A stretch of 64,000 nucleotides of DNA from assembly GCA_045118975.1 (NCBI GenBank), contig JBGVCT010000016.1, positions 28,199-92,198 of the forward strand. Direction: 5' to 3'. A program made the position numbers and the translations under genes. The notes beneath the pieces were generated by a model. The model was not told the origin of the DNA. It searched no databases and saw only the letters and a program-made list of their open reading frames with translations. How positions within the stretch are numbered: the first letter of the stretch is position 1; every line of letters begins with the position of its first letter. Shown here in pieces: positions 21,429 through 36,772 of the stretch. The stretch is from Bacilli bacterium (GTDB lineage Bacteria; Bacillota_I; Bacilli_A; RFN20; DUOF01).

Positions 21429-21505
<77 letters not shown>

Positions 21506-21525
21506 TTAAATTTGTAAATGTATTT

Positions 21526-21601: not shown

Positions 21602-21606
21602 CTATT

Positions 21607-21683
21607 GGCCTTTTGGAGAAGCGGCTTAACTCACATCCCTTTCACGGATGCATTCACGGGTTCGAATCCCGTAAAGGTCACCA
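21607..21683 (+). tRNA. tRNA-Glu (anticodon TTC)
   Basis: Closely resembles Firmicutes tRNA-Glu (GGCC..TGG..AAGCGG..CCCTTTCACGG..CACGGGTTCGAATCCCGT..GGTCACCA). Confidence 0.85.
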
Positions 21684-21691
21684 TATTTAGT

Positions 21692-21767
<76 letters not shown>

Positions 21768-21777
21768 TTTTATTTAA

Positions 21778-21860
21778 GGGGCTATGGCGGAACTGGTAGA
21801 CGCGCCAGACTTAGAATCTGGTGAGAGATCGTGGGAGTTCGAGTCTCCCTAGCCCCACCA
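21778..21860 (+). tRNA. tRNA-Leu (anticodon TAG), class II with long variable arm. Its 3' end is the integration site of the island.
   Basis: Acceptor GGGGCTA/TAGCCCC, anticodon stem-loop CCAGA-CTTAGAA-TCTGG, extra arm, T-loop GGAGTTCGAGTCTCCC, CCA. Confidence 0.85.
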
Positions 21861-21861
21861 A
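21845..21861 (+). repeat. attL core: 17-bp direct repeat CTCCCTAGCCCCACCAA (3' end of tRNA-Leu)
   Basis: Identical 17-mer recurs at 35150-35166. Confidence 0.8.
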
Positions 21862-21874
21862 TATCTTAAAAAAT

Positions 21875-21907
21875 GCGATTGGAATTGACTTTTCAATCGT
21901 TTTTTTA
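21875..21907 (+). terminator. rho-independent terminator downstream of tRNA-Leu (island-borne copy)
   Basis: GCGATTGGAATTGAC-TTTT-CAATCG hairpin followed by T8. Confidence 0.6.
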
Positions 21908-21910
21908 TGC

Positions 21911-21975
21911 TCGTGAGAACACTTTGAGAACACTTTTTTAAAAAATGTTTTTTTGTGAGAACATTTTGGAATATT
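21911..21975 (+). repeat. cluster of GAGAACAYTTT direct repeats just inside attL (putative integrase/excisionase arm-type sites)
   Basis: GTGAGAACACTTTGAGAACACTTTTTT ... GTGAGAACATTTTGG. The same motif pair recurs at 35016-35047 just inside attR. Confidence 0.45.
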
Positions 21976-22069
21976 TTATGAGACTTTTATAAGTCTCTTT
22001 TTCTATGACATAATTCGACAAATTTCGGGAAAATCGAACGCTTTTGATAAAAATAAAAAAGATGATATG

Positions 22070-23167
22070 CTAGTTCATCATATCATCTAATCTATTTACT
22101 ATTTCTTGTTGGTTAGTTGGGAATAAGTGAGAATAAACATCTAATGTAGTAGAAACATCTTGGTGACCTAATCTTTCAGATATAAATATAGGTGTTATTC
22201 CCATATTAATAAGTAAACTTGCATGAGAGTGTCTGAAGTCATGAATTCTTATTTGTTTAACTCCAGCTTCTTTACATTTCTTGTTTTTATATCTTTCAAG
22301 AGATGTTTCACTTATTGGTTTGATACCACCAAAGACAAAATATTGTTCTGTTAAACCAGGGAAACTCTTTTCTTGCCATATTCTATATTCATTTAGTATC
22401 AATAATAGTTTTTGTGGTAAATCAATAGTTCTAACTCCTTTAGATGTCTTAGGTGCTGTCAGGGTGTATGTGGTGTTATTTTCTTTATGTTTTTGTGTTA
22501 TGGTTTTTGTTATTCTGATATATTTGCTAAATCTATTAATATCTTCCCATGTTAGAGCTAAAGCTTCGCCTTTTCTCATTCCTGTGTAGTAAAGCAAGTT
22601 GAACAAAGTGTATTGTAAAATATCACCTTCACAGCATTTGATAAAATTATTGAACTCTTCTGGAGTCCATATAAGCATTATATTTTTAACTACTGAAGTG
22701 TTTTTTATATATCCAACAGCTTTTACAGGGTTATAGTTGATGTTATAGAATTTATCGGCATATTCGTATATATCTTTAAGTAGCCCTGTGATTTTATTTA
22801 CTCTTCCTATTGTAACGTTAGAACGTTTAATTGCATTTTGCCAATTTAAAACGTCATTGTTTGTGATCCTTTGAGGATATTTTTCTCCAAAGTAACCACG
22901 AATGTATTTGTCGATAACAATTTTTTTGCCATATATGGTAGCTATTTTGTATTTGTTTTCTATAAATTTTAAATATTCGTCGCACAGTTGATTCATTGTA
23001 ACTCGTTTTAAAGATTCTAATTCATATTCTACTTGTGCTTCAGCTTGCTGTGCTTCTTTCTTTGTTTTGAAACCTCTTTTTGCAAGAAATACATTTTTAC
23101 CACTTGCATCTTTCACTCGTTTTCTGTAATACCATGTATTTCTTTTCTCATCTTTGTGGACTGACAT
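22070..23167 (-). CDS. int: site-specific tyrosine integrase
   Basis: C-terminal catalytic domain with R...HDFRHSHAS...LGHQDVSTTLDVYSHL (R-H-R-Y signature). Adjacent to the tRNA att site. Confidence 0.88.
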   Translation of the reverse strand: MSVHKDEKRNTWYYRKRVKDASGKNVFLAKRGFKTKKEAQQAEAQVEYELESLKRVTMNQLCDEYLKFIENKYKIATIYGKKIVIDKYIRGYFGEKYPQRITNNDVLNWQNAIKRSNVTIGRVNKITGLLKDIYEYADKFYNINYNPVKAVGYIKNTSVVKNIMLIWTPEEFNNFIKCCEGDILQYTLFNLLYYTGMRKGEALALTWEDINRFSKYIRITKTITQKHKENNTTYTLTAPKTSKGVRTIDLPQKLLLILNEYRIWQEKSFPGLTEQYFVFGGIKPISETSLERYKNKKCKEAGVKQIRIHDFRHSHASLLINMGITPIFISERLGHQDVSTTLDVYSHLFPTNQQEIVNRLDDMMN

Positions 23168-23318
23168 AATAATCGCTCCTTTCTATTGAATGTGTATTTT
23201 CTTGTATTAATCGAAGAAAATTGATAGAATAAGAGCATGGAAAAAGGTCTAGATGATTGCTGGTCATATAAGATTAATTATCCATGCGGCAAGTAGGGTG
23301 GTAGCTACTTGCTTTTTT

Positions 23319-23981
23319 TTATTTATTTTCTTCTTTTAGTTTTCTAATGAACTCGATATCATCTTCATTCATTAGAAGTGTATCTTCTTCAGAATTCATT
23401 AATGATTTTAGATAATCTGTTCCAAACATTGTCTCTTTTAAGCGTTGTTCGATATTTAACTCTTCAACTTCATTAAGACTTAATGCTTTTACGTAGTCTA
23501 ATAAACTCAAGAGTTGAGAGTAAATCATTGTTTTTGTTGGTGCATCAACTTTCTTAAAGTTTAGGTAGTTCTTTATATTATAAGTTAGGTCAAGAATGTC
23601 ATCTTCGATTTCTTTCATTGCTCCTAACGAATTATAAGGTCGTCCTAACCTTAAGAAATCTCCGCCTTCAAGTGCAACAAAGAATGTGTATGGTAGATCT
23701 AATGCACAAATGATTTTACTTAAATCATCTGTAGACATTCTTCTTTGTCTTGAAAGCCATAGTGTCATGGTAGAGGGAGATACTCCAACTTTCTTAGCTA
23801 AATCCTTTTTAGACATGTCTCTGATTTTCATGGCAATATTAATTCTTTCTATAACGAATTCGATAAATCCATCTTCTTGCCCCATACCAGTAGCGTCTAA
23901 CAACATTGCTTGTCTATCAACGTGAGTTAGAATAGCAGAACAAATTAGCTTCTTTTCATCACCTTTATAAAAGTAATCCAT
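23319..23981 (-). CDS. XRE-family HTH transcriptional regulator (cI-like island repressor). Start at the ATG with GGAGG RBS is preferred.
   Basis: HTH MSKKDLAKKVGVSPSTMTLWLSRQRR. Divergent from a small HTH gene. The ORF track's longer N-terminus lacks an RBS. Confidence 0.7.
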   Translation of the reverse strand: MDYFYKGDEKKLICSAILTHVDRQAMLLDATGMGQEDGFIEFVIERINIAMKIRDMSKKDLAKKVGVSPSTMTLWLSRQRRMSTDDLSKIICALDLPYTFFVALEGGDFLRLGRPYNSLGAMKEIEDDILDLTYNIKNYLNFKKVDAPTKTMIYSQLLSLLDYVKALSLNEVEELNIEQRLKETMFGTDYLKSLMNSEEDTLLMNEDDIEFIRKLKEENK

Positions 23982-24208
23982 ATTATACCTCCTGACATTT
24001 TTTACTATATCATGGAATTTTAAAAAAATAAATAGTTTTTTGAGAAAATATTTACAAGTAGTAAAAAACAAGATAAATTTATATGCAAGAAAGGAGGAAT
24101 TATTTTCTGTGCGTAAAGAAATGATACAAAATGAGACACCTGATTGATTGACATTATATATGAAAATGGTAAATAATCAGAATCAGGAAAGGGGAGAATT
24201 GATGTTAT

Positions 24209-24496
24209 ATGACCAGCAATCAAGAAAAAGAGAAGATTATTCTAAAAAGTAGTTTGACAAGAAAGGATATTATAGTTTTAACGGGATTAAACTATAAGGC
24301 AGTAACTAAGATATTCTTAAATATGAGAGAATCTATTTTAAAGAAACTTAGAAAAGATGATCCTGACTTTGAGTTCTACAATGTAAAGTATATTCCTACC
24401 ACGTATGCTTTACCTTACTTGAAGAAGTATGGAGTAGAAAGAGAAGTTATCTTGCTAAATGCTGACAGAGAAAGAAGTATTGTTATTGAACAATAG
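24209..24496 (+). CDS. small HTH protein (Cro/excisionase-like candidate)
   Basis: Predicted HTH LTGLNYKAVTKIF. Divergent from the repressor gene, with a TTGACA -35 in the intergenic region. Confidence 0.35.
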   Translation: MTSNQEKEKIILKSSLTRKDIIVLTGLNYKAVTKIFLNMRESILKKLRKDDPDFEFYNVKYIPTTYALPYLKKYGVEREVILLNADRERSIVIEQ

Positions 24497-25427
24497 ATTG
24501 AAGGAATCTTTAGACTATTTTCGACATAGAACAGATTTATATGAAACGCCTGAGATGGAACTTGCAATAAGTAACAAAGGATTTAATGTGTATGGGATAT
24601 ACTGTCTTTTGTGTGAAAAATCTAGTAGAAATATAAATAAACCTTTAATTTTAGATGACGATATGATGCATCTGTTAGCAAGAAAAGTGGGAATGTTGGT
24701 TGCAGAATTTAAAGAAAATGTAGAGGAACTAATCAAAAGGAATTTGTTTGATCAAAAAAGTTATTATGAAACTAGGGCAATAACTAATGGAATAATAGAA
24801 GAAGGTAAAGAAATAACTAAAAACAAACGAGCTTCAAAGCGTGGCGATTCCAAAAAGGAATTCCATTTTGATAAAATAGAACGCCAAACTAGCAAAACGT
24901 TTAATAATAGTAAAAGTAATATAAATAGTAATAGTAAGAATGATAGTAATAGTAACAGTAATAGTGAAATTAATATTTATAGTTATAGTAATATTGATAG
25001 TGAAACGGGGAATCCTATCAATATAACTGATAATGAGAATAATGAAGATTCATCGCTATTTGTTAATGGCGTTTTAATTGCTGATGCTAATGATCTTTAT
25101 AGAATCGTAGAAGAACTAATGGAAGCTAATATGAATGCAGGTATTAAAAATAGTATTGATTCATATATAGAAGAAAATGTTATTGCTTTAGCTAGGGCAT
25201 TAGAGAATTGTCAGAATTCTAAAACGCAAGCGATATCTTTTAATTATATCAAGAAGGCATATTCACAAGAAAAGTTAAAATTATGTTCAAAAAGTCTAAT
25301 TTTGTCGAATGATGTCGAAATCGAAAATGTAGAAGATGAAGTAGAAGAATTAGAACGTTTAAAAGAAGAAAGACGAAAACGTAAACTATTGCATGATGAA
25401 AATGATGATGAAAACAACTTTGATTAA
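24459..25427 (+). CDS. DUF4373 (Lin1244/Lin1753-like) N-terminal domain protein with an Asn/Ser-rich low-complexity linker. Phage replication-initiation associated.
   Basis: LDYFRHRTDLYETPEMELAISNKGFNVYGIYCLLCEKSSRN resembles the DUF4373 signature. Central NSNS repeats. Acidic C-terminus. Confidence 0.4.
   Translation: MLTEKEVLLLNNRLKESLDYFRHRTDLYETPEMELAISNKGFNVYGIYCLLCEKSSRNINKPLILDDDMMHLLARKVGMLVAEFKENVEELIKRNLFDQKSYYETRAITNGIIEEGKEITKNKRASKRGDSKKEFHFDKIERQTSKTFNNSKSNINSNSKNDSNSNSNSEINIYSYSNIDSETGNPINITDNENNEDSSLFVNGVLIADANDLYRIVEELMEANMNAGIKNSIDSYIEENVIALARALENCQNSKTQAISFNYIKKAYSQEKLKLCSKSLILSNDVEIENVEDEVEELERLKEERRKRKLLHDENDDENNFD
24895..25010 (+). repeat. AAT/AGT-rich simple-sequence tract encoding the (N/S)n linker
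   Basis: Near-tandem AATAGTAAT / AGTAATAGT units. Confidence 0.6.
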
Positions 25428-25450
25428 TAAAATTCTTTAAATTTTGAATA

Positions 25451-25492
25451 AAAGGGCTTTGGAGTATAAATTGCTTTGAAAGCTCTTTTTTG
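25451..25492 (+). terminator. probable rho-independent terminator after the DUF4373 gene
   Basis: Imperfect stem GGGCTTT/AAAGCTC with an 18-nt loop followed by T6. Confidence 0.35.
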
Positions 25493-25610
25493 TTTGGTGG
25501 TGAAGATAAAAACGCACAAATAGAAAGCAATGTAATTTATATCCTCACCGTAGGTGATGTGTGCAAAAATAATTAAATTGGTGTAGTTTTTTAATTAGCT
25601 TCTCGGTGGT

Positions 25611-25639
25611 TTTACTTTTACTCAATATTATGCTATAAT
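25611..25639 (+). promoter_or_regulatory. candidate promoter of the three-gene operon
   Basis: -35 TTTACT, 17-nt spacer, -10 TATAAT at 25634-25639. Confidence 0.4.
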
Positions 25640-25657
25640 ATTGTCCGTTATAAGGTC

Positions 25658-28474
25658 GTGAGTGTAGTGAATGAAGAAAATGGAATTTATTTAGTAATCA
25701 TAATTGCTGTAATAATTCTTTTGGGGTGGGGTTATAGTCATTACAGAGAACTATATAATACTCCATTACCTACTCGTTCATCTAAAAGAAAGGTTAAATA
25801 TAATTCTAAATCTAGTGTGTATGAAAAATTGTTTATAGATGAATATAATGTTTATATAGATTTGTTAAATAATATTGATTACTATGAGAAATCTATAAGT
25901 GCCATGTCTAAAAAAATAAAAGGATGTTATTTTTTTGATAAAGAACTATATTATGCACTGAAAAAGAGAAGAGAAGAATACAAAGGAAAACACATTAACT
26001 ATTTAAATCGTTTGAAATCATTTTCGATAACTAATATGTTTGTTCCAATCGGAAGTGATCAATACAACATATTCATTAAAATGTATTTTCCAAATAATGC
26101 TAATTCAAACTTTTTCCTTCATGAATTTTTTAATAGGAAATATCATTATATTGAATACAATGGTGCTTATATTGTCTTTTATGAAGAAATGATTTTTCAC
26201 ATCAATACTGAGAAAAATACATTAAGATGTTATCGCTATGATGAAGTTAATCTTGACTATTATGATAGTTTTGTAAAGAGAGTATCTGTAAAGAAAAATG
26301 AAGAAATCATAGGAGAAACATGGCTTCATGCTAGAAAAGACGGAAGTCCTGATAGACGATATAGTCAAAATTATAGAATGTATAAAGTTTTGAAAGTAAA
26401 AGTGTATATGATGAATTATGAAACTGACTTGGCATTCTACAACAAGAAAGATTTACAAGAATTTAAATCATTTATTACTTCTATAAAAAGATTAGAAAAA
26501 AATTATCGACATGATACAGAAAGTAATAGAAATTCTAATTCCGATAAAATTGCTACTAACATTAAAGAAGAAAATATTATCTATCAGACTACGCTTTTTG
26601 ATGTAGATATAGAAAAAACTATAGATGAAGTAGATACTTCAAGTTTAATAATAGATGTTGAACCTATTTCTGAAACCACTTCAATGGTCAGTGATTTTAT
26701 AGAAAACATTATTTCTGAGCAAAAGTGCATTGAATGGTGTTTTCACGATGTTTTTGGATTGGGACAAGTACAAAATAATGAAAAAGAAATATTGACAATA
26801 GAATTTTTAGGAGGAACAACTAGAAAAATAGCTCAAACATATGCTGGGTTAAAACATGTTAAAAGTTCTGTTGGAAATAGCTGTATCATTAAAACTGAAA
26901 AATATGGTTATGGTGTGATTATCGAAAATAGGGAAGATGGAGTTATAATAGCAGAGTTTAAAGATAAAAAACATGTTATATCAGGTCCAAATAGTTCATA
27001 TGAGATTATAGATGTTGCAACATTAAGTGAATCAACTAAAGTACCTAATGAACAAATTATATCTGAAGCTGAAGCAAAAGAAGAAGTAAAAGAAAGTAAG
27101 CAAGTTACTATCGGAACTCTTGTCACACAAATGAAATATGGAAAAGGTGTTATATACAAAATAGAAGATGCTTCATATACTATTGTTTTTGATTCAGGAA
27201 TCGAAAAGAAAGTATCAAAAAGTTCATGCAGTGTATTGGAATACTTTGATAAAGAAAAATATGATTCAAAATTAGAAAAATTAAAAAGATTTGATTATGT
27301 ATCTATGAAAAATATAGGCTATGGAATTATAGTTGATTTTAACTCTGACACAATTACAATAGCCTGGAAAAATAAAACAGTTGAAAAATATAATATTCTA
27401 GTTACATGTTTACTTACTAGAGTTGTATCTGAAAGAAAAATAGAGTTGTTGAATTTAAGCATTGGCGATTATTTGTATAGTAAAAAATATGGCTATGGAA
27501 GAATTGTGGAGTTTATAGTAGATAAGATAAAACTCAAATTTTATGATGTTCCTAAAGAGATTCTTGTAGGAATGGAGTATCTGCAAATACCATCACTACA
27601 ACAACTTGAACAATTTAAATCAGAACTTAGACAGTCAAGCCTATCAAGAGATCTTACTTTTTTTACAAGATTGGATAAAAAATATTATTCGTATAAAGAA
27701 GCTCTTGACATATATACAGAATACTTTAGTTCTAAAAAATCAAAAGAAAAAAGTATGGTTATTAGCACATATAAAAAAGCAGGATTCAATCTGGTCAAAG
27801 ATTTCTTTGTATATTGCGGATATTTAAAACTAGAGGATTGTATTTATGAAGAAATTATTTCTACAAAAATTTATAAATATGATTATTCTATTGAGAGTGA
27901 TACATATAATTATATCTTAGATAAGATGTGTAAGTCATATTATTGTTTGAAGTATGATGATGGAGTGTATTTCACGTTTAGCAAGTATGGCGAATTCGGG
28001 TTTAATTTCTATGAACTTTTAAGTTTTATTGGAAAATTATTGGATTTTATAAAAGAACATAAATTTGTTTCAATTGTTTACTTGAAAAATAACTACGAAG
28101 GCTATTTGCCAGACGAAGGATTGTTACTGGCTATAATAAATTCTATTAGCATGATAAAATCGAGAAAAATGGGAAATTCATATATTTATCATTTGAAAGA
28201 CGGTCAAACAGTAAAGAAAGATTTGATGTATAAATTTATAGTAGAAGAATTTAATTGTATAAATAGTAAAAGTTGTGATATATATGATTTTATGGAGCAT
28301 TTAAATATAAAATACGAATTTGAATTTGAATATTCTACATTTGTTTTATTGTTAAATGAATTAGAAGATACTAATATTTATTATAGTGAAGATACAGAAA
28401 AAATATATAGCACTAAAGAAGAGTTTTATTTGGAGGTTTATGGAAATGGAAACGAAGAAAATAATAGCAATTAA
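25658..28474 (+). CDS. membrane-anchored 938-aa protein with four C-terminal Tudor-like KYGYG repeats (candidate defence component A). GTG start at 25658 or 25667.
   Basis: N-terminal TM helix IYLVIIIAVIILLGWGY. Repeats KYGYGVIIEN / KYGKGVIYKI / NIGYGIIVDF / KYGYGRIVEF spaced 60-75 aa. Stop overlaps the next gene. Confidence 0.5.
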   Translation: MSVVNEENGIYLVIIIAVIILLGWGYSHYRELYNTPLPTRSSKRKVKYNSKSSVYEKLFIDEYNVYIDLLNNIDYYEKSISAMSKKIKGCYFFDKELYYALKKRREEYKGKHINYLNRLKSFSITNMFVPIGSDQYNIFIKMYFPNNANSNFFLHEFFNRKYHYIEYNGAYIVFYEEMIFHINTEKNTLRCYRYDEVNLDYYDSFVKRVSVKKNEEIIGETWLHARKDGSPDRRYSQNYRMYKVLKVKVYMMNYETDLAFYNKKDLQEFKSFITSIKRLEKNYRHDTESNRNSNSDKIATNIKEENIIYQTTLFDVDIEKTIDEVDTSSLIIDVEPISETTSMVSDFIENIISEQKCIEWCFHDVFGLGQVQNNEKEILTIEFLGGTTRKIAQTYAGLKHVKSSVGNSCIIKTEKYGYGVIIENREDGVIIAEFKDKKHVISGPNSSYEIIDVATLSESTKVPNEQIISEAEAKEEVKESKQVTIGTLVTQMKYGKGVIYKIEDASYTIVFDSGIEKKVSKSSCSVLEYFDKEKYDSKLEKLKRFDYVSMKNIGYGIIVDFNSDTITIAWKNKTVEKYNILVTCLLTRVVSERKIELLNLSIGDYLYSKKYGYGRIVEFIVDKIKLKFYDVPKEILVGMEYLQIPSLQQLEQFKSELRQSSLSRDLTFFTRLDKKYYSYKEALDIYTEYFSSKKSKEKSMVISTYKKAGFNLVKDFFVYCGYLKLEDCIYEEIISTKIYKYDYSIESDTYNYILDKMCKSYYCLKYDDGVYFTFSKYGEFGFNFYELLSFIGKLLDFIKEHKFVSIVYLKNNYEGYLPDEGLLLAIINSISMIKSRKMGNSYIYHLKDGQTVKKDLMYKFIVEEFNCINSKSCDIYDFMEHLNIKYEFEFEYSTFVLLLNELEDTNIYYSEDTEKIYSTKEEFYLEVYGNGNEENNSN

Positions 28475-29654
28475 TACAGGAAGAAAAGAAAAAATGGTTA
28501 TAGGCGGGCACACTGTATTAGAAGATGTATATAAGGTCGATATTTCTACTTTATATTACAATGATGAAAATGGTAGAATAGCAACTTTTATTGCAGAATA
28601 TAAATCCAAAAGTGATGTTGCTATAAACGAGCTTTCATTTGATGAATATAATGAAACTATAATGCAATTTATCAAAGACTCTAGTAACAAAGATAAATAT
28701 AAAACTACTAAGGAAGATATAAAGAAAAACGGGCAATTGAGAATTGGTATCATTTTAGATGATGGTAGAGTAATTGACGGAAACAGACGTTTTACTTGTT
28801 TACGTGAATTATATAACGAAACCGGGGATGAAAGATATCAATATTTCGAATGCGTTATTTTAAAAGTACCTACAACTCTAAATGATAAAAAAATGATTAA
28901 ATCATTAGAATTGAAATATCAATTTGGAGAAGATGCTAGAGTAGATTATAATGCCATTGATAAATTAGTTGATGTATATAATCTTTTAGTGGGACCAAGT
29001 AGAATTTTTTCAATAAAAGAATATCGTGATCGTGTAAATAATCAAATCAAAGAAACTGATATAAAAAGAATGATGGTTAAAGCTGAAGTTATGTATGATT
29101 ATTTGGACTTTATAGGTATGAAAGAAAGATACGATATTGCTAGAGACTATAAATTAGATGGTCCAATTCAAGAAATAGCAGCACTAAAGTCTTCTTTATC
29201 AGACTTTGAGTGGAGCGAAGTAAGGCCAATTATGTATAAAGCCATGAAAGATGCAACTGGTGATAGAACAAGAGAAGTTCGTAGTCTAATAAAGGTATAT
29301 AAAAATAGTCCGTCAGAATTTGAAAAGATAAGAAATAATTTCTTAAATATCGAATTTAAGCAAGAACAAATCAAACATTCACAAGCAGAAGCAACCGAAG
29401 TTGTAACTAAAAAAGAAGAATTATCAGATTTAAAAGCAGAATATAAAGAACTTGTTAAGGATAGTATAGCTAAAACAGGAATAGATATGGCTAGAAAAAA
29501 ACAAAATGAGTTATTAAAAGGTGTAGTTAAGAAAATGTCTGAAATAGATAAAATATCGTTAAGACACTTACCTGAAGACTTGAAAAAAGAATTCATGCAA
29601 TATTTAAGTCAGTTAGAAATGGAAATTGCAATTTGTAAGAAGGAAATAGAATAA
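28440..29654 (+). CDS. ParB/DndB(DGQHR)-like N-terminal domain protein with DGNRR motif and a coiled-coil C-terminal half (candidate defence component B)
   Basis: VDISTLYYNDENGR ... LRIGIILDDGRVIDGNRRFTCLREL matches ParB-N/sulfiredoxin-fold boxes. Start ATG at 28440 with GGAGG RBS (track ORF starts upstream within the previous gene). Confidence 0.55.
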   Translation: MEMETKKIIAINTGRKEKMVIGGHTVLEDVYKVDISTLYYNDENGRIATFIAEYKSKSDVAINELSFDEYNETIMQFIKDSSNKDKYKTTKEDIKKNGQLRIGIILDDGRVIDGNRRFTCLRELYNETGDERYQYFECVILKVPTTLNDKKMIKSLELKYQFGEDARVDYNAIDKLVDVYNLLVGPSRIFSIKEYRDRVNNQIKETDIKRMMVKAEVMYDYLDFIGMKERYDIARDYKLDGPIQEIAALKSSLSDFEWSEVRPIMYKAMKDATGDRTREVRSLIKVYKNSPSEFEKIRNNFLNIEFKQEQIKHSQAEATEVVTKKEELSDLKAEYKELVKDSIAKTGIDMARKKQNELLKGVVKKMSEIDKISLRHLPEDLKKEFMQYLSQLEMEIAICKKEIE

Positions 29655-32227
29655 TGTTAGAGAAAGTTCATTTCAAATCATTATACAATTCTAAACAAGA
29701 TGATGTTATAAATGATTTTTATATTCCCGCATTATCTCAATCTAATGGTTATGACAGAATAAGCGCGTATTTTGATTCTAAAATTTTAAGAATGTATGCG
29801 GCGGGTCTAGAAAATATAAAAGATGGCGGGCGTGTTAGATTTATTTTTTCATGTGACCTTGATGAAGAAGATTATAACTTAATGAAGCAAGGATATGATT
29901 TAAGAGAAAAAATAAATTCAAAGTTACTTAATTCTATTTCAGATGAAGATGTTAATATTGATGTTTCAAATTTGGCGTATCTTATAGCTATTGGCGTAGT
30001 AGATATTAAGATTGCTTTTACTACTAAAGGAATTTTTCATGATAAATATGGGGTCTTTTCTGATTCTGAAGGAAACAAAGTATATTTTAGGGGATCGAAT
30101 AACGAAACTCTAGCTTCAATTATGTATAATTATGAAAGTTTTGAGACGTCTTGCTCATGGAATTGTGATGCGCGTGAAGAATTGAAAATTGACAATGCTG
30201 TTAGAACCTTTGAAGCTATATGGAATGATGAATTTCCAGAACTATATGTAATTCCGCTACCTGAATGTGTGAAAGAAAAACTTATAGGATATTCTTCTAA
30301 AGAAATATCTTCAATATATTATAAAAAAGAAAATTGTGCAATTTTTGATGTTGATGAACAATATCATTATACGTTGAATAATTTTTTAGATAACAAGTCG
30401 TTACTGGATACTCAAAGTAGTTTGTATAAGTATATTATACATCCTTATGTTGATTCTTACATTTCATATTCTGATACATATGTATTGAAGAATATTGGTT
30501 ATATGCAATTGAATAAACTGATTGTAGAAGTTAAAAAATATGCTTCACAATTAGGTTTTGATGTATACGTTGCTCCAAGACTAAGAAGGTTAATGTATGA
30601 AAGAGATATTTATATTGATAAGCGAAAAGACTTGGGAATTGCTATTAAACATAGAGACCCAAATTTAAATGAAGATTTCGAAAAATTTAAAAATATTATT
30701 AGTCAAGAGATGGTTAGAGAACTTCGTGAACCACAACAATGGGATGCTTATCATATAGCTAAAATGGTAAAATCTGCAAACTTTTCTGTTCCGGGAGCTG
30801 GTAAAACAACAATTGTATATGGTGCCTATGCCTATTTGGCAGCTATCAATAAAATTGATAAAATAGTTATGATTGGGCCTAAAAACTCATTTAGAGCATG
30901 GAAACAAGAATTTGTAGCAAACTTTGGTAATAAAAAAGAATTAAATGTATTAGATATACAAGCTAATAATGAACTTGACAAGAAATCTATGCTTAAGTAT
31001 CAATCAGATGATAAAAATTTAATTTTAGTTAATTATGAAAGCGTGCAAGGTGTGCTAGAAGAATTAACTTCGGCAATAAACGATAAAACATTGTTGGTAT
31101 TTGATGAAATTCATCGAATTAAATCTGTTAAGGGAAAAAGAGCAGAAGCTTGCCTTCGTTTAGCTAATAAAGCTAATTATAAAGTTGCTTTAACGGGAAC
31201 TCCATTACCAAATGGGTATGATGATATATATAACATGCTAAATATATTATTTTGCGATGAGTATAGTACATTTTTCGGATTTAAAGTTAACTATTTAAGA
31301 GAAGCTAGGTCTATATCTGCTTCACAAGATGCAATAAACAAGAAAATATTTCCGTTTTTTTGTAGAACTACGAAGAATGATTTACAAGTTCCGCCACCAT
31401 GCCAAGATGATACAGTTACTGGATATCTAGAAATGAATGATATTGAAGAAGAAATATTTTCTATAATTTATCGAGAATATTCATATAACACATTGATTTT
31501 ATATGTTCGTTTAACGCAGGCATCTTCTAATCCTGCATTATTGCTTAAATCAGTAGATAAAAATGATTTAGCTGATTTTGATGGGGATTGCGATGAAGAT
31601 GATTATGGTTTGTGGGATGAAATAGAGAAAGAAGATCATAAATTATCGAAAAAGGATTATGATTTTATCTTTAATAATATGACAACAAGAAAAATAGATA
31701 GATGTTGTGAGATAATTGAAGATAGGGTTCGCAATGGTGAAACTGTAGTAGCTTGGGGAATTTATATTGATAGTTTGAATTTGGTTTATGATAAATTGAC
31801 TTCAAAGGGAGTGAAAGCTGTAATAATAAGCGGAGCAACTCCTCAAGAAGTTCGCGATGAATATATTAATATGTTTTGTAATAAGGAAATAGATGTTTTG
31901 ATAACTAATCCACATACTTTAGCTGAGTCTGTTTCTTTGCATAAAACATGCCACTTTGCTATATATTTTGAGTATGATTTTAATTTAACTCATATGGTGC
32001 AATCTAGAGATAGAATTCACAGATTGGGGTTACCTGAAGGTCAAAAAACAGAATATTGTTATATGACGCTAAACTCAAAAACTAGTGAATATAATACTAT
32101 TGATGTAAAGATTTATGAAAGACTAAAAGAAAAAGAAAGAATAATGTTAGAGGCAGTTGAAAACAACGACATTGCTGTCGTTGAAGATGATTATATGGAT
32201 AATATTAATTTTATTTTACGTCGTTAA
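29654..32227 (+). CDS. PLD-like (HKD) nuclease domain fused to SNF2-family helicase (candidate defence component C)
   Basis: N-terminal HDKYGVFSD...GSNNET (HKD-like). SNF2 motifs PGAGKTT (I), LVFDEIHR (II), ALTGTPLPNGYDD (III), QSRDRIHRLG (VI). Start overlaps the upstream stop (TAATG). Confidence 0.75.
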   Translation: MLEKVHFKSLYNSKQDDVINDFYIPALSQSNGYDRISAYFDSKILRMYAAGLENIKDGGRVRFIFSCDLDEEDYNLMKQGYDLREKINSKLLNSISDEDVNIDVSNLAYLIAIGVVDIKIAFTTKGIFHDKYGVFSDSEGNKVYFRGSNNETLASIMYNYESFETSCSWNCDAREELKIDNAVRTFEAIWNDEFPELYVIPLPECVKEKLIGYSSKEISSIYYKKENCAIFDVDEQYHYTLNNFLDNKSLLDTQSSLYKYIIHPYVDSYISYSDTYVLKNIGYMQLNKLIVEVKKYASQLGFDVYVAPRLRRLMYERDIYIDKRKDLGIAIKHRDPNLNEDFEKFKNIISQEMVRELREPQQWDAYHIAKMVKSANFSVPGAGKTTIVYGAYAYLAAINKIDKIVMIGPKNSFRAWKQEFVANFGNKKELNVLDIQANNELDKKSMLKYQSDDKNLILVNYESVQGVLEELTSAINDKTLLVFDEIHRIKSVKGKRAEACLRLANKANYKVALTGTPLPNGYDDIYNMLNILFCDEYSTFFGFKVNYLREARSISASQDAINKKIFPFFCRTTKNDLQVPPPCQDDTVTGYLEMNDIEEEIFSIIYREYSYNTLILYVRLTQASSNPALLLKSVDKNDLADFDGDCDEDDYGLWDEIEKEDHKLSKKDYDFIFNNMTTRKIDRCCEIIEDRVRNGETVVAWGIYIDSLNLVYDKLTSKGVKAVIISGATPQEVRDEYINMFCNKEIDVLITNPHTLAESVSLHKTCHFAIYFEYDFNLTHMVQSRDRIHRLGLPEGQKTEYCYMTLNSKTSEYNTIDVKIYERLKEKERIMLEAVENNDIAVVEDDYMDNINFILRR

Positions 32228-33608
32228 TAATGGACAAAATAAATGATCTATCCAACCAGAAACAGTGTTTAGTATAATATGCTAAACCTGTTTTTTTATC
32301 TGGAACTGGTAAAATGTATCCACCACCACTTTTGTCTATACCAGTAGAGTCATGTGGTCTAACGTGACAAATGTGATTAAATGTACTTCCTGGGAAGTTA
32401 GTAAAATATTTTCCTGCTGAATATGAATTTACTATATCACCAGATTTGATAATTTTTTGAGTGTATTCCCATGTTTCTTTTACTTCTTTATCAAGTATTT
32501 CTAAAGGCATGTTCCAAAATTTAATTTTATCTAGATAGTAAACGCCATTTTTCTTCTTGAAAACAACAAACATATATTTAGTTGTATCAAATTTTTCTCT
32601 TAATTCAGAGGATTCCCACGTTTGCTCTGCAATATCTATATATTTAAATGTAGGAAAAGACATATGCTCTTTAATTTTGCCATTTTCTTCAATTCTAATT
32701 GTTTTTAATTCTAGATTTGCTTTTCTAAATTCATCGGTATTATTGATGTGACCGTTGAAACCTAACATTGCGCCAGTTAATACATTAAATCTGCTTTTTA
32801 GGGCAGGATTATTAGGTATGCCAAATTTTTCAAATAACTCGACTTCAGACATACCATAGTAAGGTTTTAATTTTTGATCCATAATTGCTTCAAATGTTGA
32901 ATTTTTAAGTTCTTCAAAAGAAACTATAGATTTACATTTTTCTCCAATAAGATTTTTATTTATTATTGTATTGATATATGAAGGCTTTAAGCAGTATGCT
33001 CTTTGTTTGGCTAATTTATCTGAAGCAGGTTGTTTTCTATAACTGCTTGCAGCATCTTTTCCTTTGGTGCAAGCGCCTAAATACATTGTGTCTGCTTCTG
33101 ACAAAGTATCAGCTAGTCCGTTATTAATTTTATCTACTATTAATTGCCAATCGTATTTTATTATTTCTAAATCTTCTTGAGAAAATGAATGAAGAATTGA
33201 ATCGATAAGATAAAAGTCGAAATCCTCTTTTTCTTCGTATAAATAAAACATTAATAATAGAGACATGTTTTTCTTCCAAAAAGTGCTATCTTCAAATGGG
33301 ATATTATATTCCAACATATAGTCAATGATATTAAGAACAAGTCTTTCTTTAGCTACATACTCATTATTTTTTAGTTTTTTTAGACCAGTTACTTTTAATT
33401 CTACGCCTAAATCAGCAAAATCAGCTTCAGGGCGAGAATTAGGAGGATAGTGAAAGACTCCTTCTTCAATAATTTGACCAATAACACCTTTATTGTTTTT
33501 TGCTAATGAGCGGTTATTAATATTGTATTCTGATATTCTATGACCACTTGTTTGCTTAGCAATTTCAAGTAGTTCGTTTGCTGAACTATATTTTGGTATT
33601 GTATTCAT
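32211..33608 (-). CDS. Sau3AI-like type II restriction endonuclease (tandem MutH/Sau3AI-fold domains, probable GATC specificity)
   Basis: Long collinear similarity to Sau3AI: GVELK..KKLKN..KERLVLNII, DYEIIKYDWQLI, LGACTKG, KQPASDKLAKQRAY and C-terminal ICHVRPH. Confidence 0.8.
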   Translation of the reverse strand: MNTIPKYSSANELLEIAKQTSGHRISEYNINNRSLAKNNKGVIGQIIEEGVFHYPPNSRPEADFADLGVELKVTGLKKLKNNEYVAKERLVLNIIDYMLEYNIPFEDSTFWKKNMSLLLMFYLYEEKEDFDFYLIDSILHSFSQEDLEIIKYDWQLIVDKINNGLADTLSEADTMYLGACTKGKDAASSYRKQPASDKLAKQRAYCLKPSYINTIINKNLIGEKCKSIVSFEELKNSTFEAIMDQKLKPYYGMSEVELFEKFGIPNNPALKSRFNVLTGAMLGFNGHINNTDEFRKANLELKTIRIEENGKIKEHMSFPTFKYIDIAEQTWESSELREKFDTTKYMFVVFKKKNGVYYLDKIKFWNMPLEILDKEVKETWEYTQKIIKSGDIVNSYSAGKYFTNFPGSTFNHICHVRPHDSTGIDKSGGGYILPVPDKKTGLAYYTKHCFWLDRSFILSIINDVK

Positions 33609-33746
33609 GTTATATCGCCTTCTTTATAGAAAAATTATAGCAAATAAAAATAAAGGGCACATTTATTTTAGAGATATTTCAAAAAAAACTTGATCAAGAC
33701 AGAAGTTTGTGATATGATTATAGTGTTTTGAAAGAGGTGAATCCGA

Positions 33747-34991
33747 GTGAATAAAAGTGTAGTTGAATTATTTGCTGGTGTAGGTGGTTTTAGAGTAGGA
33801 CTTAATAAAATCAAAAATATAGATAACAATGGTAAAGCAGTAGAAAATGGTGATTGGGATTTTGTGTGGGCTAATCAATGGGAACCTGCAACAAGAACTC
33901 AAGATGCTTTTGATTGTTATATAAAAAGATTTGGTAAAGATAGTTGTTCTAATGAAGATATAACTACTGTTATTAAAGAAAACATTCCTGACCATACATT
34001 ATTAACTGGTGGATTCCCTTGCCAAGATTACTCTGTTGCTAGAACAAAATCTGGCGAAAAAGGAATTGAAGGTAAAAAAGGTGTTTTATGGTGGCAAATC
34101 AATGACATCTTATTAGCTAAAAAGCCTCCATTTGTTTTATTAGAAAATGTAGATAGACTAATAAAAGCTCCTGCTAGACAAAGAGGTAGAGATTTTGGAA
34201 TTATTTTAAGATGTTTAAATGATGCTGGTTACTGTGTTGAATGGAGAGTAATTAATGCTGCAGAATATGGACATCCTCAAAAGAGAAGAAGAACATATAT
34301 ATTTGCATATAACAAAAATACAAACTATTACACTCAACAATGTAATGTGACTCCAGAAGAAATCTTATTAAATAAAGGTATGTTTGCTAAATCATTTCCT
34401 GTATCTAAGTTAGCTACTAAAGTTAGCCAAACAGATTTAAGTTCTAATTCATATAATGATTTAGTAGATATGACAGCAGAATTTAAATTCAACTTTGAAA
34501 ATAGTGGATACTTATGTGATGGTATTGTATATACAGCTAAAACTCAACCTGTATTGGAAGATCCAATCACATTATTCCAAATTAGAGAACAAGACAGCGT
34601 TGATGCAAAATATCAATTAACGAAGAATATAGATAAGTTCATATATTTAAAAGGAAGTAAAAAAATACCTAGAGTATCTAAAACTGGTATGGAATATAAT
34701 TATTCTGAAGGCAAAATGTCTTTCCCAGATAGATTAGATATGCCAGGTAGAACAATGCTTACAAGTGAAGGAACAGTAAATAGAAGTTCTCATGTAATAA
34801 GCGACTTACAAACTGGTATGTTAAGAATTATTACTCCAAAAGAAGCAGAAAGACTTAACCAATTCCCAGATAACTGGACTAATTCAGGAATGACAGATTC
34901 AAAGAGATACTTCATGATGGGAAATGCATTAGTTTGTGGCGTAATTGAAAAAATTGGTAATCAATTAAATGAAATTATAGACTGCGAATAA
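33747..34991 (+). CDS. DNA (cytosine-5)-methyltransferase, cognate of the Sau3AI-like endonuclease
   Basis: Motif I ELFAGVGGF, motif IV GGFPCQDYS, motif VI LLENV, motif VIII QKRRR. Confidence 0.9.
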   Translation: MNKSVVELFAGVGGFRVGLNKIKNIDNNGKAVENGDWDFVWANQWEPATRTQDAFDCYIKRFGKDSCSNEDITTVIKENIPDHTLLTGGFPCQDYSVARTKSGEKGIEGKKGVLWWQINDILLAKKPPFVLLENVDRLIKAPARQRGRDFGIILRCLNDAGYCVEWRVINAAEYGHPQKRRRTYIFAYNKNTNYYTQQCNVTPEEILLNKGMFAKSFPVSKLATKVSQTDLSSNSYNDLVDMTAEFKFNFENSGYLCDGIVYTAKTQPVLEDPITLFQIREQDSVDAKYQLTKNIDKFIYLKGSKKIPRVSKTGMEYNYSEGKMSFPDRLDMPGRTMLTSEGTVNRSSHVISDLQTGMLRIITPKEAERLNQFPDNWTNSGMTDSKRYFMMGNALVCGVIEKIGNQLNEIIDCE

Positions 34992-35015
34992 TTATATAAT
35001 TTTTATGGATGTTTT

Positions 35016-35047
35016 GTGAGAACATTTTGAGAACACTTTTTGGAAAA
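35016..35047 (+). repeat. GAGAACAYTTT direct repeats just inside attR (match the 21911-21975 cluster)
   Basis: GTGAGAACATTTTGAGAACACTTTTTGG. Confidence 0.45.
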
Positions 35048-35149
35048 TTGATTCTAAGCAATACTAAATTGGTGCGAAAAATAGTGAAAAATGACTAAAA
35101 ATATGGTGTTTTTACTATAAAAACCGAGTGTTTGCATACAATCATATGC

Positions 35150-35166
35150 CTCCCTAGCCCCACCAA
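35150..35166 (+). repeat. attR core: second copy of CTCCCTAGCCCCACCAA
   Basis: Exact 17-mer match to the tRNA-Leu 3' end at 21845-21861, not part of a complete tRNA here. Confidence 0.8.
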
Positions 35167-35178
35167 GTGTGTCGTATG

Positions 35179-35208
35179 CGAACACCTTATCCAGGTGTTC
35201 GTTTTTTA
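35179..35208 (+). terminator. rho-independent terminator (probable original tRNA-cluster terminator displaced by island insertion)
   Basis: CGAACACC-TTATCCAG-GTGTTCG hairpin followed by T6, 12 nt after attR. Confidence 0.6.
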
Positions 35209-35237
35209 ATACAAAATCTTCATCAACTCCATTACAA

Positions 35238-35265
35238 AGAATACATGAACAGTATTCTTTTTTTG
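35238..35265 (+). terminator. second hairpin-T-run terminator
   Basis: AGAATAC-ATGAAC-AGTATTCT hairpin followed by T6. Confidence 0.5.
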
Positions 35266-35311
35266 TTTTATTAATATTCTGTTATAATAATATAAATTGG
35301 TGGTGAATTAG

Positions 35312-36772
35312 GTGAAAAAAGTAAATTTATTTGATATTTCTAAACTGCATGATAACAAAGCTATCAGTGAGATATATGTAAGATATTTGGCTGACTTTCC
35401 AGATGAAAAACAATATAGACACGAAGAAATTAAATATATAAATGAATTATTGAAAATACTTAATATAGAAACTGAAGAAGTAGAAGATTTTTATTATGGT
35501 TATGAAGTTCCACAATTAAATAAGGAGTTTGATTTACTTAAGGTTACAAAAGAGTCTGTATTAAACATAGAACTAAAAGGAACCGTGGATGATGAGTTGA
35601 AAATACTAGAACAGTTGAAGAAAAACTTGCACTATTTAAAACTTCTAAATAGAAAATGCTATCAGTTCACCTATTTATCTAAAGAACAAAAATTGTTCAA
35701 ATTGAATAAAAACAAACTAGAGGTCATAGATTTTGATGAATTGTATGAAGTAATTAAATCAATATCTCAAGAGGACATTGACGAAGTTTACTTAGATGAA
35801 TATTATAAACCAAATGTTATTTTGGTTTCTCCACTTAATAATCCTAAAAGATTTATAAGTAATTCATACTTACTAACTGAAAATCAGGAAAATATAAAAA
35901 AAGAAATAATTAATGATTTAGAAATTAATAACAAGAAATATTACGCTATTCATGGGAATGCAGGAACTGGAAAAACATTACTACTATATGATATTGGGAA
36001 AACACTTTCTGAAAATAAAAATATTCTTCTTATCCATTCTGGTATTATTTGTAAAGGACATAGCTTTTTGAATAAAAATATGGAAAAATTTAAGATAATT
36101 TCAGCAAAAGATTTAAAGTACAAAGATTTAAGAAATGTTGATGTTTTGCTTGTTGACGAAGCTCACAGATTGTATAGAGAAGATTTAGAAAAAATAATAA
36201 AATGGGTAAATAAGAAAGTTTACTCTTGTATTTTTTCTTTTGATGGAAAGCAAGTCTTATCTTATAGTGAAGAACGAAGGCAAACAACAGAAAATATAAA
36301 ATTCATATGCAAAGGAAGATTACACAAATTAACAAATAAAATTAGAACAAATAAAGAAATTTCCTTATTTGTACAATGTTTATTTGATTTGAGTAAGTAT
36401 AGGGATGAATACAAATTTGCTAACGTTAAAATTGTTTATGAGCCAGACAAACTTAAAGCGGTTGAAAGGGCAAAGAATGCTTTGGGTTACACATATATAT
36501 CATATACAGGTTCTTTTTATAATCATGATATAGACTACCAATTTTCTCAACATAATACTCACAATGTCATTGGTCAAGAATTCGATAGGGTATGTATGAT
36601 CATGGGAAATGAATTTTATTATAAAAACAATAAATTAAAAGGATATACTCATCCCACTCCGGACTATATTTATACTCAATTGTTATATCAAGGATTAACG
36701 AGAGCTCAAACTGGTGTGCTTTTAATAATAACTGATATTGAGCTTTTGAAAAGCATATTAAACCTGATTTAG
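35312..36772 (+). CDS. NERD/PD-(D/E)xK-like N-terminal domain fused to an SF1 (DUF2075-like) P-loop ATPase/helicase. Nhi-like candidate defence nuclease-helicase.
   Basis: N-terminal FDLLKV...VLNIELKG (D...E-x-K). Walker A HGNAGTGKT, Walker B LLVDEAHRL, motif VI-like GLTRAQTGVLLI. GTG start with GGTGGTGA RBS and a TATAAT at 35287. Confidence 0.55.
   Translation: MKKVNLFDISKLHDNKAISEIYVRYLADFPDEKQYRHEEIKYINELLKILNIETEEVEDFYYGYEVPQLNKEFDLLKVTKESVLNIELKGTVDDELKILEQLKKNLHYLKLLNRKCYQFTYLSKEQKLFKLNKNKLEVIDFDELYEVIKSISQEDIDEVYLDEYYKPNVILVSPLNNPKRFISNSYLLTENQENIKKEIINDLEINNKKYYAIHGNAGTGKTLLLYDIGKTLSENKNILLIHSGIICKGHSFLNKNMEKFKIISAKDLKYKDLRNVDVLLVDEAHRLYREDLEKIIKWVNKKVYSCIFSFDGKQVLSYSEERRQTTENIKFICKGRLHKLTNKIRTNKEISLFVQCLFDLSKYRDEYKFANVKIVYEPDKLKAVERAKNALGYTYISYTGSFYNHDIDYQFSQHNTHNVIGQEFDRVCMIMGNEFYYKNNKLKGYTHPTPDYIYTQLLYQGLTRAQTGVLLIITDIELLKSILNLI

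Follow-up and report, generated by a model that had tools for sequence, protein, structure and literature searches.

A probable satellite-like integrative island with defense cargo at a tRNA-Leu gene of an uncultured gut member of the Bacilli

The 64,000-nucleotide (nt) stretch of contig JBGVCT010000016.1 (GenBank assembly GCA_045118975.1) analyzed here, hereafter the window, belongs to an uncultured low-G+C member of the Bacilli from an animal gut. We conclude, with a probability of about 0.8, that positions 21862-35166 of the window are a 13.3-kb site-specific integrative island that resembles phage satellites and carries neither virion nor lysis genes. The identification of this segment as an integrase-borne island in the 3' end of a tRNA-Leu gene, with a duplicated attachment (att) core and defense cargo, is strongly supported: a recombinase, repeats of the tRNA end next to an intact tRNA and a presence/absence polymorphism, three features of tRNA-targeting tyrosine-integrase islands, were found. 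Elements of this kind are already known, and the newest lead is the conserved five-gene cassette that the island carries.

The tRNA-Leu target and the att sites

The integration target is a tRNA-Leu(TAG) gene (21778-21860, + strand; ARAGORN, Rfam tRNA score 62.1 bits) that is intact after the insertion and is the last of five tRNA genes (Ile-Asn-Glu-Thr-Leu, 21429-21860, + strand) identified by ARAGORN, in agreement with Rfam. The attL core (21845-21861, + strand), which consists of 16 nt of the tRNA 3' end and an additional A, recurs exactly as the attR core at 35150-35166 (+ strand), just as a previous reading of this DNA, made from the sequence only, had noted. Read against the tRNA, this 17-mer, CTCCCTAGCCCCACCAA, comprises the 3' strand of the T-stem, the 3' acceptor strand, the discriminator A, the CCA and one extra A. 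The window contains exactly two copies of it, with no further occurrence even at 2 mismatches; 0.01 copies are expected by chance per window, and two copies were seen in none of 100 shuffled sequences. Ten contigs from ten samples (L034-L043), found by exact-protein look-ups, share the backbone of the island, and the attL of four of these sister islands (L034, L035, L036 and L038) has the identical core; in all fetched loci, the 17-mer is confined to tRNA-Leu or attR. These counts, along with the absence of the region from related genomes, refute the notion, which no observation favors, that an ordinary chromosomal segment happens to lie between two copies of a chance or common 17-bp repeat, a possibility that the sequence-only reading had named as its own potential undoing.

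The non-coding arms next to the cores contain a second, shorter repeat. GAGAACAYTTT is present in five exact copies in the 64 kb, all on the + strand: three direct copies in the left arm (21915, 21926 and 21957, spanning 21915-21967) and two (35018 and 35029) in the right arm (35010-35149, + strand), which was delimited by homology to the right arm of L035, a homology that starts exactly at these repeats. The L034-type islands, in which the integrase gene is 92% identical to that of the window, have GGGCACAYTTT in the same positions, and 8 of the 16 amino acid (aa) substitutions in the L034 integrase fall in residues 4-54, which cover most of the arm-binding domain (aa 11-51). That the repeats and the arm-binding domain of the enzyme vary together provides good indirect evidence for the repeats as arm-type integrase sites.

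Inside attL, a terminator scan detected a hairpin followed by seven T residues (21875-21907, or 21875-21900, + strand) that is borne by the island and is kept in all sister attL arms. Located directly after attL, this hairpin would terminate the tRNA operon, the native terminator being displaced.

The island backbone

The backbone (21862-25563) encompasses genes for a tyrosine integrase, a helix-turn-helix (HTH) repressor, a divergently transcribed 95-aa protein and a DUF4373 replication-initiator-like protein. The integrase gene (22070-23167, - strand) lies close to attL, in line with the previous reading, its stop codon being 208 nt from the attL end. The 365-aa product, with its N-terminal arm-DNA-binding domain, matches Phage_integrase (E = 2.6e-23), Arm-DNA-bind_4 (1.1e-9) and the SAM-like Phage_int_SAM_3 (7e-6) in Pfam, and phrog_1, integrase (1.2e-74), among the PHROGs. 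It contains the strings MRKGE (197), KGVRT (243), HDFRH (309), LGHQD (333) and DVYSH (343), which would represent the complete R..K..HxxR..H..Y catalytic set. The protein is 36-37% identical to the integrases of temperate Bacillus phages and of one Staphylococcus phage; integrase scans of metagenome and viral contigs yielded full-length phage-type integrases with just 23-36% identity and were uninformative.

The next gene (23319-23981, - strand; extending to 24071 with a TTG start) codes for a repressor-like regulator of the XRE/Cro-C1 HTH type, with 220 aa, the length also called in L034-L043. The protein matches HTH_26 (4.6e-8) and HTH_3 (3.9e-6) in Pfam as well as PHROG families of transcriptional repressors and regulators, and Pfam detected no peptidase domain in it. 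An intergenic control region of 227 nt (23982-24208) separates the repressor gene from the divergent gene for the 95-aa protein (24209-24496, + strand), upstream of which the promoter scan placed a promoter-like TTGACA-18-AATAAT (24148-24177, + strand), a consensus match only, with agreement at 11 of 12 positions. The collection lists exactly this 95-aa sequence in 41 blocks, and the analysis covered 23 contigs that carry it. No significant Pfam, PHROG or NCBIfam family was found for this protein in searches up to an E-value of 10 (the best match was TFIIE_alpha, E = 0.023), and the single-sequence AlphaFold model, with a predicted local distance difference test score (pLDDT) of 58.6, is not interpretable; possibly, the protein is a Cro- or Xis-like factor. 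Of the cI/cro-like switch proposed previously, the minus-strand HTH repressor and the small divergent gene are indeed present; however, the HTH attributed to the small gene has no family match, and the label itself is an analogy only because the repressor lacks a peptidase domain.

The replication gene (24459-25427, + strand), the start of which overlaps the 95-aa open reading frame (ORF) by 38 nt, encodes a 322-aa protein whose earlier assignment to DUF4373 was confirmed by the Lin1244_N match in Pfam (E = 3.7e-8); in the PHROGs, it matches phrog_2562, 'replication initiation protein' (7e-9). Six copies of an AT-rich 12/18-nt iterated repeat (family D1, 24902-25015) reside within this gene and may be the origin of replication, as in initiator genes with an internal origin. 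Neither capsid and tail nor terminase and lysis families were found among the island proteins when seven of these were compared with the PHROGs, nine with Pfam and nine with NCBIfam, so that the reported lack of structural phage genes holds.

Composition distinguishes the island in one respect. The G+C content (0.287, compared with 0.285 and 0.276) does not set it apart, but its tetranucleotide usage does: the L1 distance from the core is 0.183, whereas a null distribution drawn from the core itself gave 0.071 +/- 0.012, with none of the 200 null samples as high. The G+C comparison with the chromosomal backbone that had been suggested as a check thus does not single out the island.

Island-free alleles and transfer between species

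Alleles without the island, which the sequence-only reading had proposed to look for, were identified in the same species and in a related one. In L003, a metagenome contig with a flank ~99% identical to that of the window, tRNA-Leu is followed by 121 nt and then by the window sequence from 39875 onward, so that 21863-39874 is missing. L003 alone spans the site among the contigs obtained by exact look-ups of the upstream DHH gene and of the AbiO-like gene of the right flank, most of which are short. In L008, the GTDB genome "Bacilli bacterium RGIG6178" from sheep rectum, which represents a related species (flank 83-89% identical) and was the single genome returned by a genome scan with the tRNA-Leu 3' half, a terminator of its own comes directly after tRNA-Leu, and synteny is restored at window position 41694, in ABC-transporter genes.

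The sister loci L034-L043 carry the same backbone of integrase, HTH, 95-aa and DUF4373 genes, and the five that extend far enough leftward all reach the tRNA-Leu cluster. The most telling comparison is that with L035. The chromosomal flank of this locus (acetate kinase and DHH phosphoesterase) is 82.8% identical to that of the window, whereas the identity is 99.5% in the left arm, 98.9% in the integrase gene (with a single residue difference between the proteins), 99.1% in the repressor gene, 99.7% in the 95-aa gene, 99.4% in the replication gene and 99.3% in the following 136 nt; the attR core of L035 matches at 16 of the 17 positions. The cargo of L035 consists of a Dam-type methylase, a 148-aa ORF, an N6_N4 methylase, a DpnII endonuclease and a T5orf172/PDC-S57 protein. 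In the alignments, the homology to the sister loci ends sharply at 25563-25564, after ...GTAGGTGATGTGTG (BLAST end points 25563-25571), and the junction falls at the same nucleotide, 25563, for three different cargoes (L034, L035 and L038). Of six cargo and right-flank proteins that were looked up (four from the cassette, AbiO/Nhi and the 414-aa ORF), four stand alone in their clusters, and the clusters of the other two contain a few near-identical proteins. Because the backbone is far more alike than the surrounding chromosome and occupies the same site with swapped cargo, these alignments demonstrate recent horizontal movement between species.

This pattern also bears on the possibility that the segment is a decayed prophage that kept its lysogeny and early-replication module, had its late genes replaced by defense genes and is now fixed and immobile. 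Such an origin would fit the affinity of the integrase with those of temperate Bacillus phages and one Staphylococcus phage, the arrangement of the repressor, early and replication genes, which resembles the early region of a temperate siphovirus, and the fact that no excision product was observed. However, a compact, ~99% identical backbone in a species with an 83% identical flank, with other cargo and the same junction, is unlike the outcome of independent decay, and the 17-bp repeats are perfect and the integrase intact, one residue away from the L035 copy. Furthermore, none of the three long sister loci contains structural genes, and known phages yielded no match to the replication gene. 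Accordingly, we consider a prophage remnant very unlikely.

The sister loci show additional variation in what they carry. In L034 (5887-7809), as well as in L036, L037 and L039, two extra genes, for proteins of 359 aa and 211 aa without a Pfam or PADLOC match, separate the left arm from the integrase gene and occupy a second cargo slot, at the point that corresponds to 22002/22017 of the window. At the start of its main slot, L034 has a 226-aa ORF and a gene for a surface protein that exceeds 3,000 aa and contains Ig-like domains. The DpnII-type system of L035 (11483-15110) and the Sau3AI-type system of the window (32211-34991) are unrelated systems in the same slot of a 99% identical backbone; both presumably recognize GATC.

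The five-gene cassette

The cargo had been described as almost entirely defense functions. It is indeed of the defense type but, rather than a set of separate functions, it is a single conserved five-gene cassette, the linkage of which recurs in L044, L049 and L051. The first gene (25658-28474, + strand) encodes a 938-aa protein that has a hydrophobic segment at its N-terminus, a conserved domain at its C-terminus and, at aa 366-650, five Tudor-like repeats in tandem, marked by a [FYI]GxGx[IV] motif at aa 366, 416, 494, 553 and 611. These repeats are similar to the Tudor domains through which PcrA/UvrD and CarD/TRCF bind RNA polymerase. A word-indexed search retrieved only the protein itself, and an exhaustive HMMER search of 1.84 billion proteins produced 41 remote representatives; the remote relatives match PcrA_UvrD_tudor, CarD_TRCF_RID or LRR_5, and some contain BspA-type leucine-rich repeats. 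The protein is homologous to L044_1052, L049_658 and L051_810, with which it has a C-terminal domain of ~230 aa in common, the rest being variable.

The second gene (28446-29654, + strand) encodes a ParB/Srx-like protein of ~402 aa with a DGNRR motif, identified by fold search. It has 858 homologues, none with a recorded Pfam domain or functional name; ddrB-ParB matches below the threshold in 13 of 31 members of the family, and G96, N97, R98 and R99 are invariant in an alignment of 31 sequences. Sequence and profile searches against solved structures returned nothing for this protein, so that the fold search is the sole support for its assignment: the structural model (pLDDT 89.8) has the pNOB8 ParB N-domain (E = 6e-3, probability 1.00) and sulfiredoxin (probability 1.00) as its best Foldseek matches. 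As modeled, therefore, the protein would combine a GxRR-type motif with a ParB/sulfiredoxin fold.

The product of the third gene (29654-32227, + strand; 857 aa) is an N-terminal nuclease domain of the HKD/PLD type fused to an SNF2 helicase. It matches SNF2-rel_dom (3.5e-22) and Helicase_C (4.5e-9) in Pfam and, over aa 2-220, PbeA in PADLOC (2.2e-67); aa 381-825 match solved SNF2 remodelers, with the Walker A motif at 381 and DEIH at 484. More than 1,900 homologues were found, and the best 120 listed are all full-length.

The last two genes are a restriction-modification (RM) pair. The Sau3AI-family type II restriction endonuclease (32211-33608, - strand; 465 aa) scores 509.5 bits with the equivalog-level model NF040973, the cut-off of which is 300, and matches MutH (1.6e-36), with a MutH-like D63-x6-E70-x-K72 motif. 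The neighboring C5-cytosine DNA methyltransferase (33747-34991, + strand; 414 aa) matches DNA_methylase (3e-59) and TIGR00675 (238.8 bits, cut-off 100.65) and has the canonical FxGxGG, PCQ and ENV motifs. The pair has the enzyme-level hallmarks of a Sau3AI-family RM system and, by sequence, is probably specific for GATC; the frequency of GATC, about half of that expected across the whole window, is no more than suggestive of GATC recognition.

In six independent contexts (the window, L044, L046, L048, L049 and L051), the HKD-SNF2 and 402-aa proteins are encoded by neighboring genes, to which a C5 methylase gene is linked. The identities of the cassette proteins across these contexts range from 24 to 62%, with the C5 methylase 50-62% identical to that of the window wherever it was compared (L044, L046 and L048). 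All five genes, including those for the Sau3AI/MutH-like endonuclease and for a large protein of 658-1052 aa, are present in the window, L044, L049 and L051, in three gene orders. L046 (6096-6794) and L048 (6060-6740) have a four-gene variant in which a protein of 226-232 aa corresponds to just the C-terminal half of the Sau3AI-like endonuclease and is devoid of D-x6-E-x-K; this points to a separate DNA-reading module at the service of the HKD-SNF2 nuclease. Because the cassettes elsewhere adjoin McrBC, AIPR, an Mrr-type enzyme or an integrase, a role in defense is supported. No PADLOC or NCBIfam anti-phage model matches the ParB-like or the large protein.

From this linkage, we infer that the five genes form a composite system of DNA restriction that discriminates self from non-self. 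In such a system, the SNF2-HKD protein would be a second, translocating nuclease beside the RM pair, with methylation marking the host DNA. More tentatively, and with some preference for the opposite view, we entertain the idea that the cargo is a hitherto undescribed defense system that works as one machine, as opposed to an RM pair accompanied by bystanders. Methylation would then mark self DNA, and the Sau3AI-type module, the non-catalytic C-terminal half of which is taken as the DNA-reading half, would recognize sites that lack methylation; the SNF2-HKD protein would move along the invading DNA and degrade it; the fast-evolving large protein, in the version with the full endonuclease, might sense the invader or gate the response; and the ParB/Srx-like protein could act as an NTPase or a nickase.

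Integration, mobility and alternative explanations

The anatomy of the site suggests how the proposed satellite-like island would operate. The integrase would recombine the 17-bp core of the element with the identical 3' end of tRNA-Leu(TAG), thereby regenerating the tRNA and leaving a core at both ends of the island, with the N-terminal arm-binding domain likely bound to the GAGAACAYTTT repeats in both arms; the hairpin just inside attL would stand in for the displaced terminator of the tRNA operon. The HTH protein probably holds the rightward operon (the 95-aa and replication genes) off, and derepression would lead to excision and to replication from the AT-rich iterated region within the replication gene. 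The exchangeable cargo slot begins downstream of the 25563 junction. A helper phage or uptake of the excised circle through natural competence are both possible vehicles of transfer.

One sub-hypothesis about this vehicle is that the island is a helper-dependent satellite of the phage-inducible chromosomal island (PICI) type, in which a helper protein derepresses the island, which then excises, replicates and is packaged via pac or cos sites in the non-coding arms. The repressor is devoid of a self-cleaving peptidase domain, as Stl-type repressors also are, and the backbone is 99% identical across species, both of which agree with such a life style. The same holds for the gene order, which runs from the integrase through the divergent regulators and the replication gene to the accessory genes, for the length of 13.3 kb and for the lack of structural and lysis genes, as well as for the second cargo slot between attL and the integrase gene in relatives such as L034, a position in which PICIs carry defense genes (PMC10085698). 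Conversely, the small terminase, the capsid-morphogenesis gene and the primase were not found in the Pfam, PHROG and NCBIfam scans, leaving at most three of the five core PICI components, the element is not among the IMG/VR viral contigs, and comparable islands of Streptococcus thermophilus move by natural competence without a helper (PMC13376191). Dependence on a helper phage has no direct support because neither an excisionase or a primase nor a small-terminase or capsid-redirecting gene came to light in the island; we regard it as possible but somewhat doubtful.

Alternatively, the segment could be an integrative mobilizable element that is excised by its integrase and transferred by a co-resident conjugative element acting on a transfer origin that the island contains. 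In favor of this idea, movement between species is evident, and small integrase-bearing tRNA islands without transfer genes of their own are often mobilizable. However, no relaxase, coupling protein or recognizable transfer origin was found, and the regulators and the replication gene are of the phage type, as judged by the PHROG integrase, repressor and replication-initiation families, which makes this alternative unlikely.

Several observations weigh against the conclusion that 21862-35166 is a satellite-like mobile island. Apart from the missing excisionase, primase and packaging-related genes, a tblastn search of 50,697 phage genomes gave no match to the replication protein, and viral contigs contained neither this protein, nor close relatives of the integrase, nor the attP pattern. 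Neither an excised circle nor an attP junction or repaired attB of this particular island was observed. Likewise, no allele that joins tRNA-Leu directly to the sequence from 35167 onward (GTGTGTCGTATGCGAACACC) was found, and the "empty" alleles miss the whole 18-20 kb. The right arm of the window is just 84% identical to that of L035, compared to 99% in the left part, and the high identity to L035 could reflect a recombinational swap of the backbone module instead of transfer of the whole element. The assignments of arm sites, origin and promoter come from sequence patterns alone, and the functional coupling of the five cargo genes from conserved linkage.

Older insertions at the same site

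The region to the right of attR appears to have a history of its own. The sequence-only reading regarded the hairpin after attR as the original terminator of the tRNA operon. A G+C-rich hairpin with a T-run is indeed present at 35178-35202 (+ strand), 11-12 nt past attR, but comparison with L008, L035 and L003 rules it out as the ancestral terminator. The module that follows tRNA-Leu directly in L008 is ACCATATCTAAAGAATTACTCTGATACAAT...GTGTCAGAGTTTTT, and its homologues are located at 38156-38205 and 39872-39915 of the window and also after the L035 island; the 39872 copy is the one common to L003. The window has four terminators on the + strand, each located after a full or decayed copy of the tRNA 3' end: 21875-21900, preceded by the attL core; 35178-35202, by the attR core; 38174-38199, by a CCACCA remnant; and 39890-39915, by an AACCAA remnant.

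Because homologues of the L008 terminator module sit at 38156-38205 and 39872-39915, 35167-38155 and 38162-39871 are best viewed as two older layers of accreted accessory DNA outside the island (35167-39871 altogether), which are missing in L003, L035 and L008 and each of which ends in a remnant of a tRNA 3' end and a terminator. The 35178 hairpin belongs to the first layer and may have been the working terminator just before the island arrived. That layer, which has no integrase, contains an AbiO/Nhi-like gene (35312-36772; PADLOC AbiO 1.2e-128, Nhi 7.6e-126) and a 414-aa ORF without a family (36822-38066). The second layer contains a gene for a 281-aa protein (38541-39386, - strand) with a C-terminal PemK/MazF-like toxin domain (Pfam PemK_toxin, 2.2e-7) and a 103-aa ORF (39475-39786), and ends with the AACCAA remnant and the terminator common to L003.

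The terminator module itself, ~50 nt of the form ACCA[T/A]AT[C/G]TAAAG...GATACAAT...TTTTT, was located at the two window sites given above, twice in L008 (6907-6957 and 3880-3930) and in L035 (15490-15540). Occurring after tRNA-Leu, after an unrelated L008 gene and twice in the window, it behaves as a repeated, portable element.

Traces of other residents were also noticed in the related loci. In L035, a degenerate second left arm of the L034 type (15252-15353, ~100 nt, with GGGAACAC/GGGCACAC repeats) lies right after the attR core, an attP-like junction that, on sequence grounds, is the putative footprint of an earlier related resident at tRNA-Leu. In L003, the 121 nt from the tRNA core to a degenerate core (CTAGCCCGGCCAA), at 1534-1655, contain a direct repeat, TTGTGCGA, and a hairpin that looks like a terminator; the "empty" allele is itself not in a pristine state, and the 121-nt stretch is probably the stub of another island. 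Farther along the window, 39957-41607 encodes an S-adenosylmethionine-dependent methyltransferase (PADLOC mad2-like, 1.9e-15) and a protein of the adenosine-deaminase family (PADLOC CARF_ADA, 5e-16); these genes may be accessory as well because no homology was detected in L035 or L008. A T-box leader near the window end (63528-63790; Rfam RF00230, 109.4 bits) is unrelated to the island.

Taken together, these results make the locus a clear example of a compact chassis, composed of integrase, repressor and replication genes, that moves between species and uses a single tRNA-Leu target, with arm sites that evolve along with the integrase and whole defense modules that are swapped at a fixed nucleotide junction. 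The same tRNA-Leu site had gathered earlier layers of insertions, each of which left a tRNA-end remnant and a terminator. These findings favor the notion that, well beyond the model genera, small islands of the satellite-like kind have a major share in carrying anti-phage systems. The cassette, the two conserved partners of which have 858 and more than 1,900 homologues, is a candidate multi-gene restriction system outside the current defense catalogues.

Comparison with known systems

Among the described elements, the closest analogues of the island are the S. thermophilus chromosomal islands (StCIs), also denoted "type C" phage-inducible islands, with which its architecture agrees point for point. 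The StCIs are 7-20 kb long, are bounded by 16-18-bp direct repeats with attL upstream of the integrase gene, contain regulatory and replication genes but no structural genes, and carry RM or abortive-infection cargo; copies with more than 99% identity occupy the same site in other species, SatelliteFinder classifies the islands as type C, and they are mobilized by competence after phage induction (PMC13376191). The island described here has a length of 13.3 kb, 17-bp repeats, an integrase gene 208 nt from attL and no structural genes. The two differ in that the replication protein of the island is of the DUF4373 type, as opposed to a primase, and in that the island targets the 3' end of tRNA-Leu in an uncultured gut member of the Bacilli; the likeness is architectural, and no sequence relationship was found. 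For the StCIs, excision, induction and transfer by competence have been demonstrated, whereas the island is known here from sequence alone.

With the SaPI-type PICIs, the island shares the terminal integrase, the divergent regulatory pair, the replication module with a putative origin, the accessory or defense slots and the lack of tail and lysis genes; unlike in these PICIs, no small terminase, capsid-morphogenesis gene or primase was found. PICIs are defined by five core components, namely integrase, alpA/merR/stl regulation, primase-replicase, capsid morphogenesis and small terminase, and the authors of SatelliteFinder regard "type C", with at most three of the five, as ambiguous (PMC10085698). 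In the island, the integrase is present, the divergent HTH_3/HTH_26 repressor-like gene is a candidate for the regulatory component, the place of the replicase is taken by the DUF4373/phrog_2562 protein, in which no primase or helicase domain was found, and the Pfam, PHROG and NCBIfam scans found no capsid-morphogenesis or small-terminase component. Strict membership in the PICIs was rejected given these two missing components, and the island is at best of "type C". The hotspots of P4-like satellites and P2-like phages likewise combine a conserved backbone with a fixed slot in which unrelated defense systems are swapped (PMC8628076, PMC13586616); the backbone family and host phylum of these elements are unrelated to those of the island, the slot of which starts at 25563.

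As for the cargo, the cassette shares with the Sau3AI RM system an equivalog-level endonuclease with a MutH-like N-terminal half and a neighboring C5 methylase. In the window and in at least three other contexts, however, the Sau3AI-type pair is tied to genes for the ParB-like, HKD-SNF2 and large variable proteins, which, to our knowledge, are not part of the classical two-gene Sau3AI system.

Similarly to the cassette, PbeA, an HKD endonuclease fused to a superfamily-2 (SF2) helicase (PMC10853773), HmaA, an SNF2 helicase with a nuclease domain (PMC11232893), and DrmD with DrmC of DISARM combine an SF2/SNF2 translocase with a nuclease domain and are linked to a DNA-modification enzyme. Membership in each of these systems was considered and rejected. 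The HKD-SNF2 protein has a PbeA-like architecture (2.2e-67), but PADLOC found neither PbeC/CxC ABC ATPase nor PbeD/DndE of the Pbe (CxC-ABC) system in the island; of DISARM, there are weak domain-level matches to DrmD and DrmMII only, without DrmA, DrmB (DUF1998) or DrmC; and the nuclease of the cassette is an N-terminal HKD domain whereas that of HmaA is a C-terminal PD-(D/E)xK domain (PMC11232893). The ParB-like and Sau3AI-derived partners are the components that are specific to the cassette, as opposed to Pbe, Hma and DISARM.

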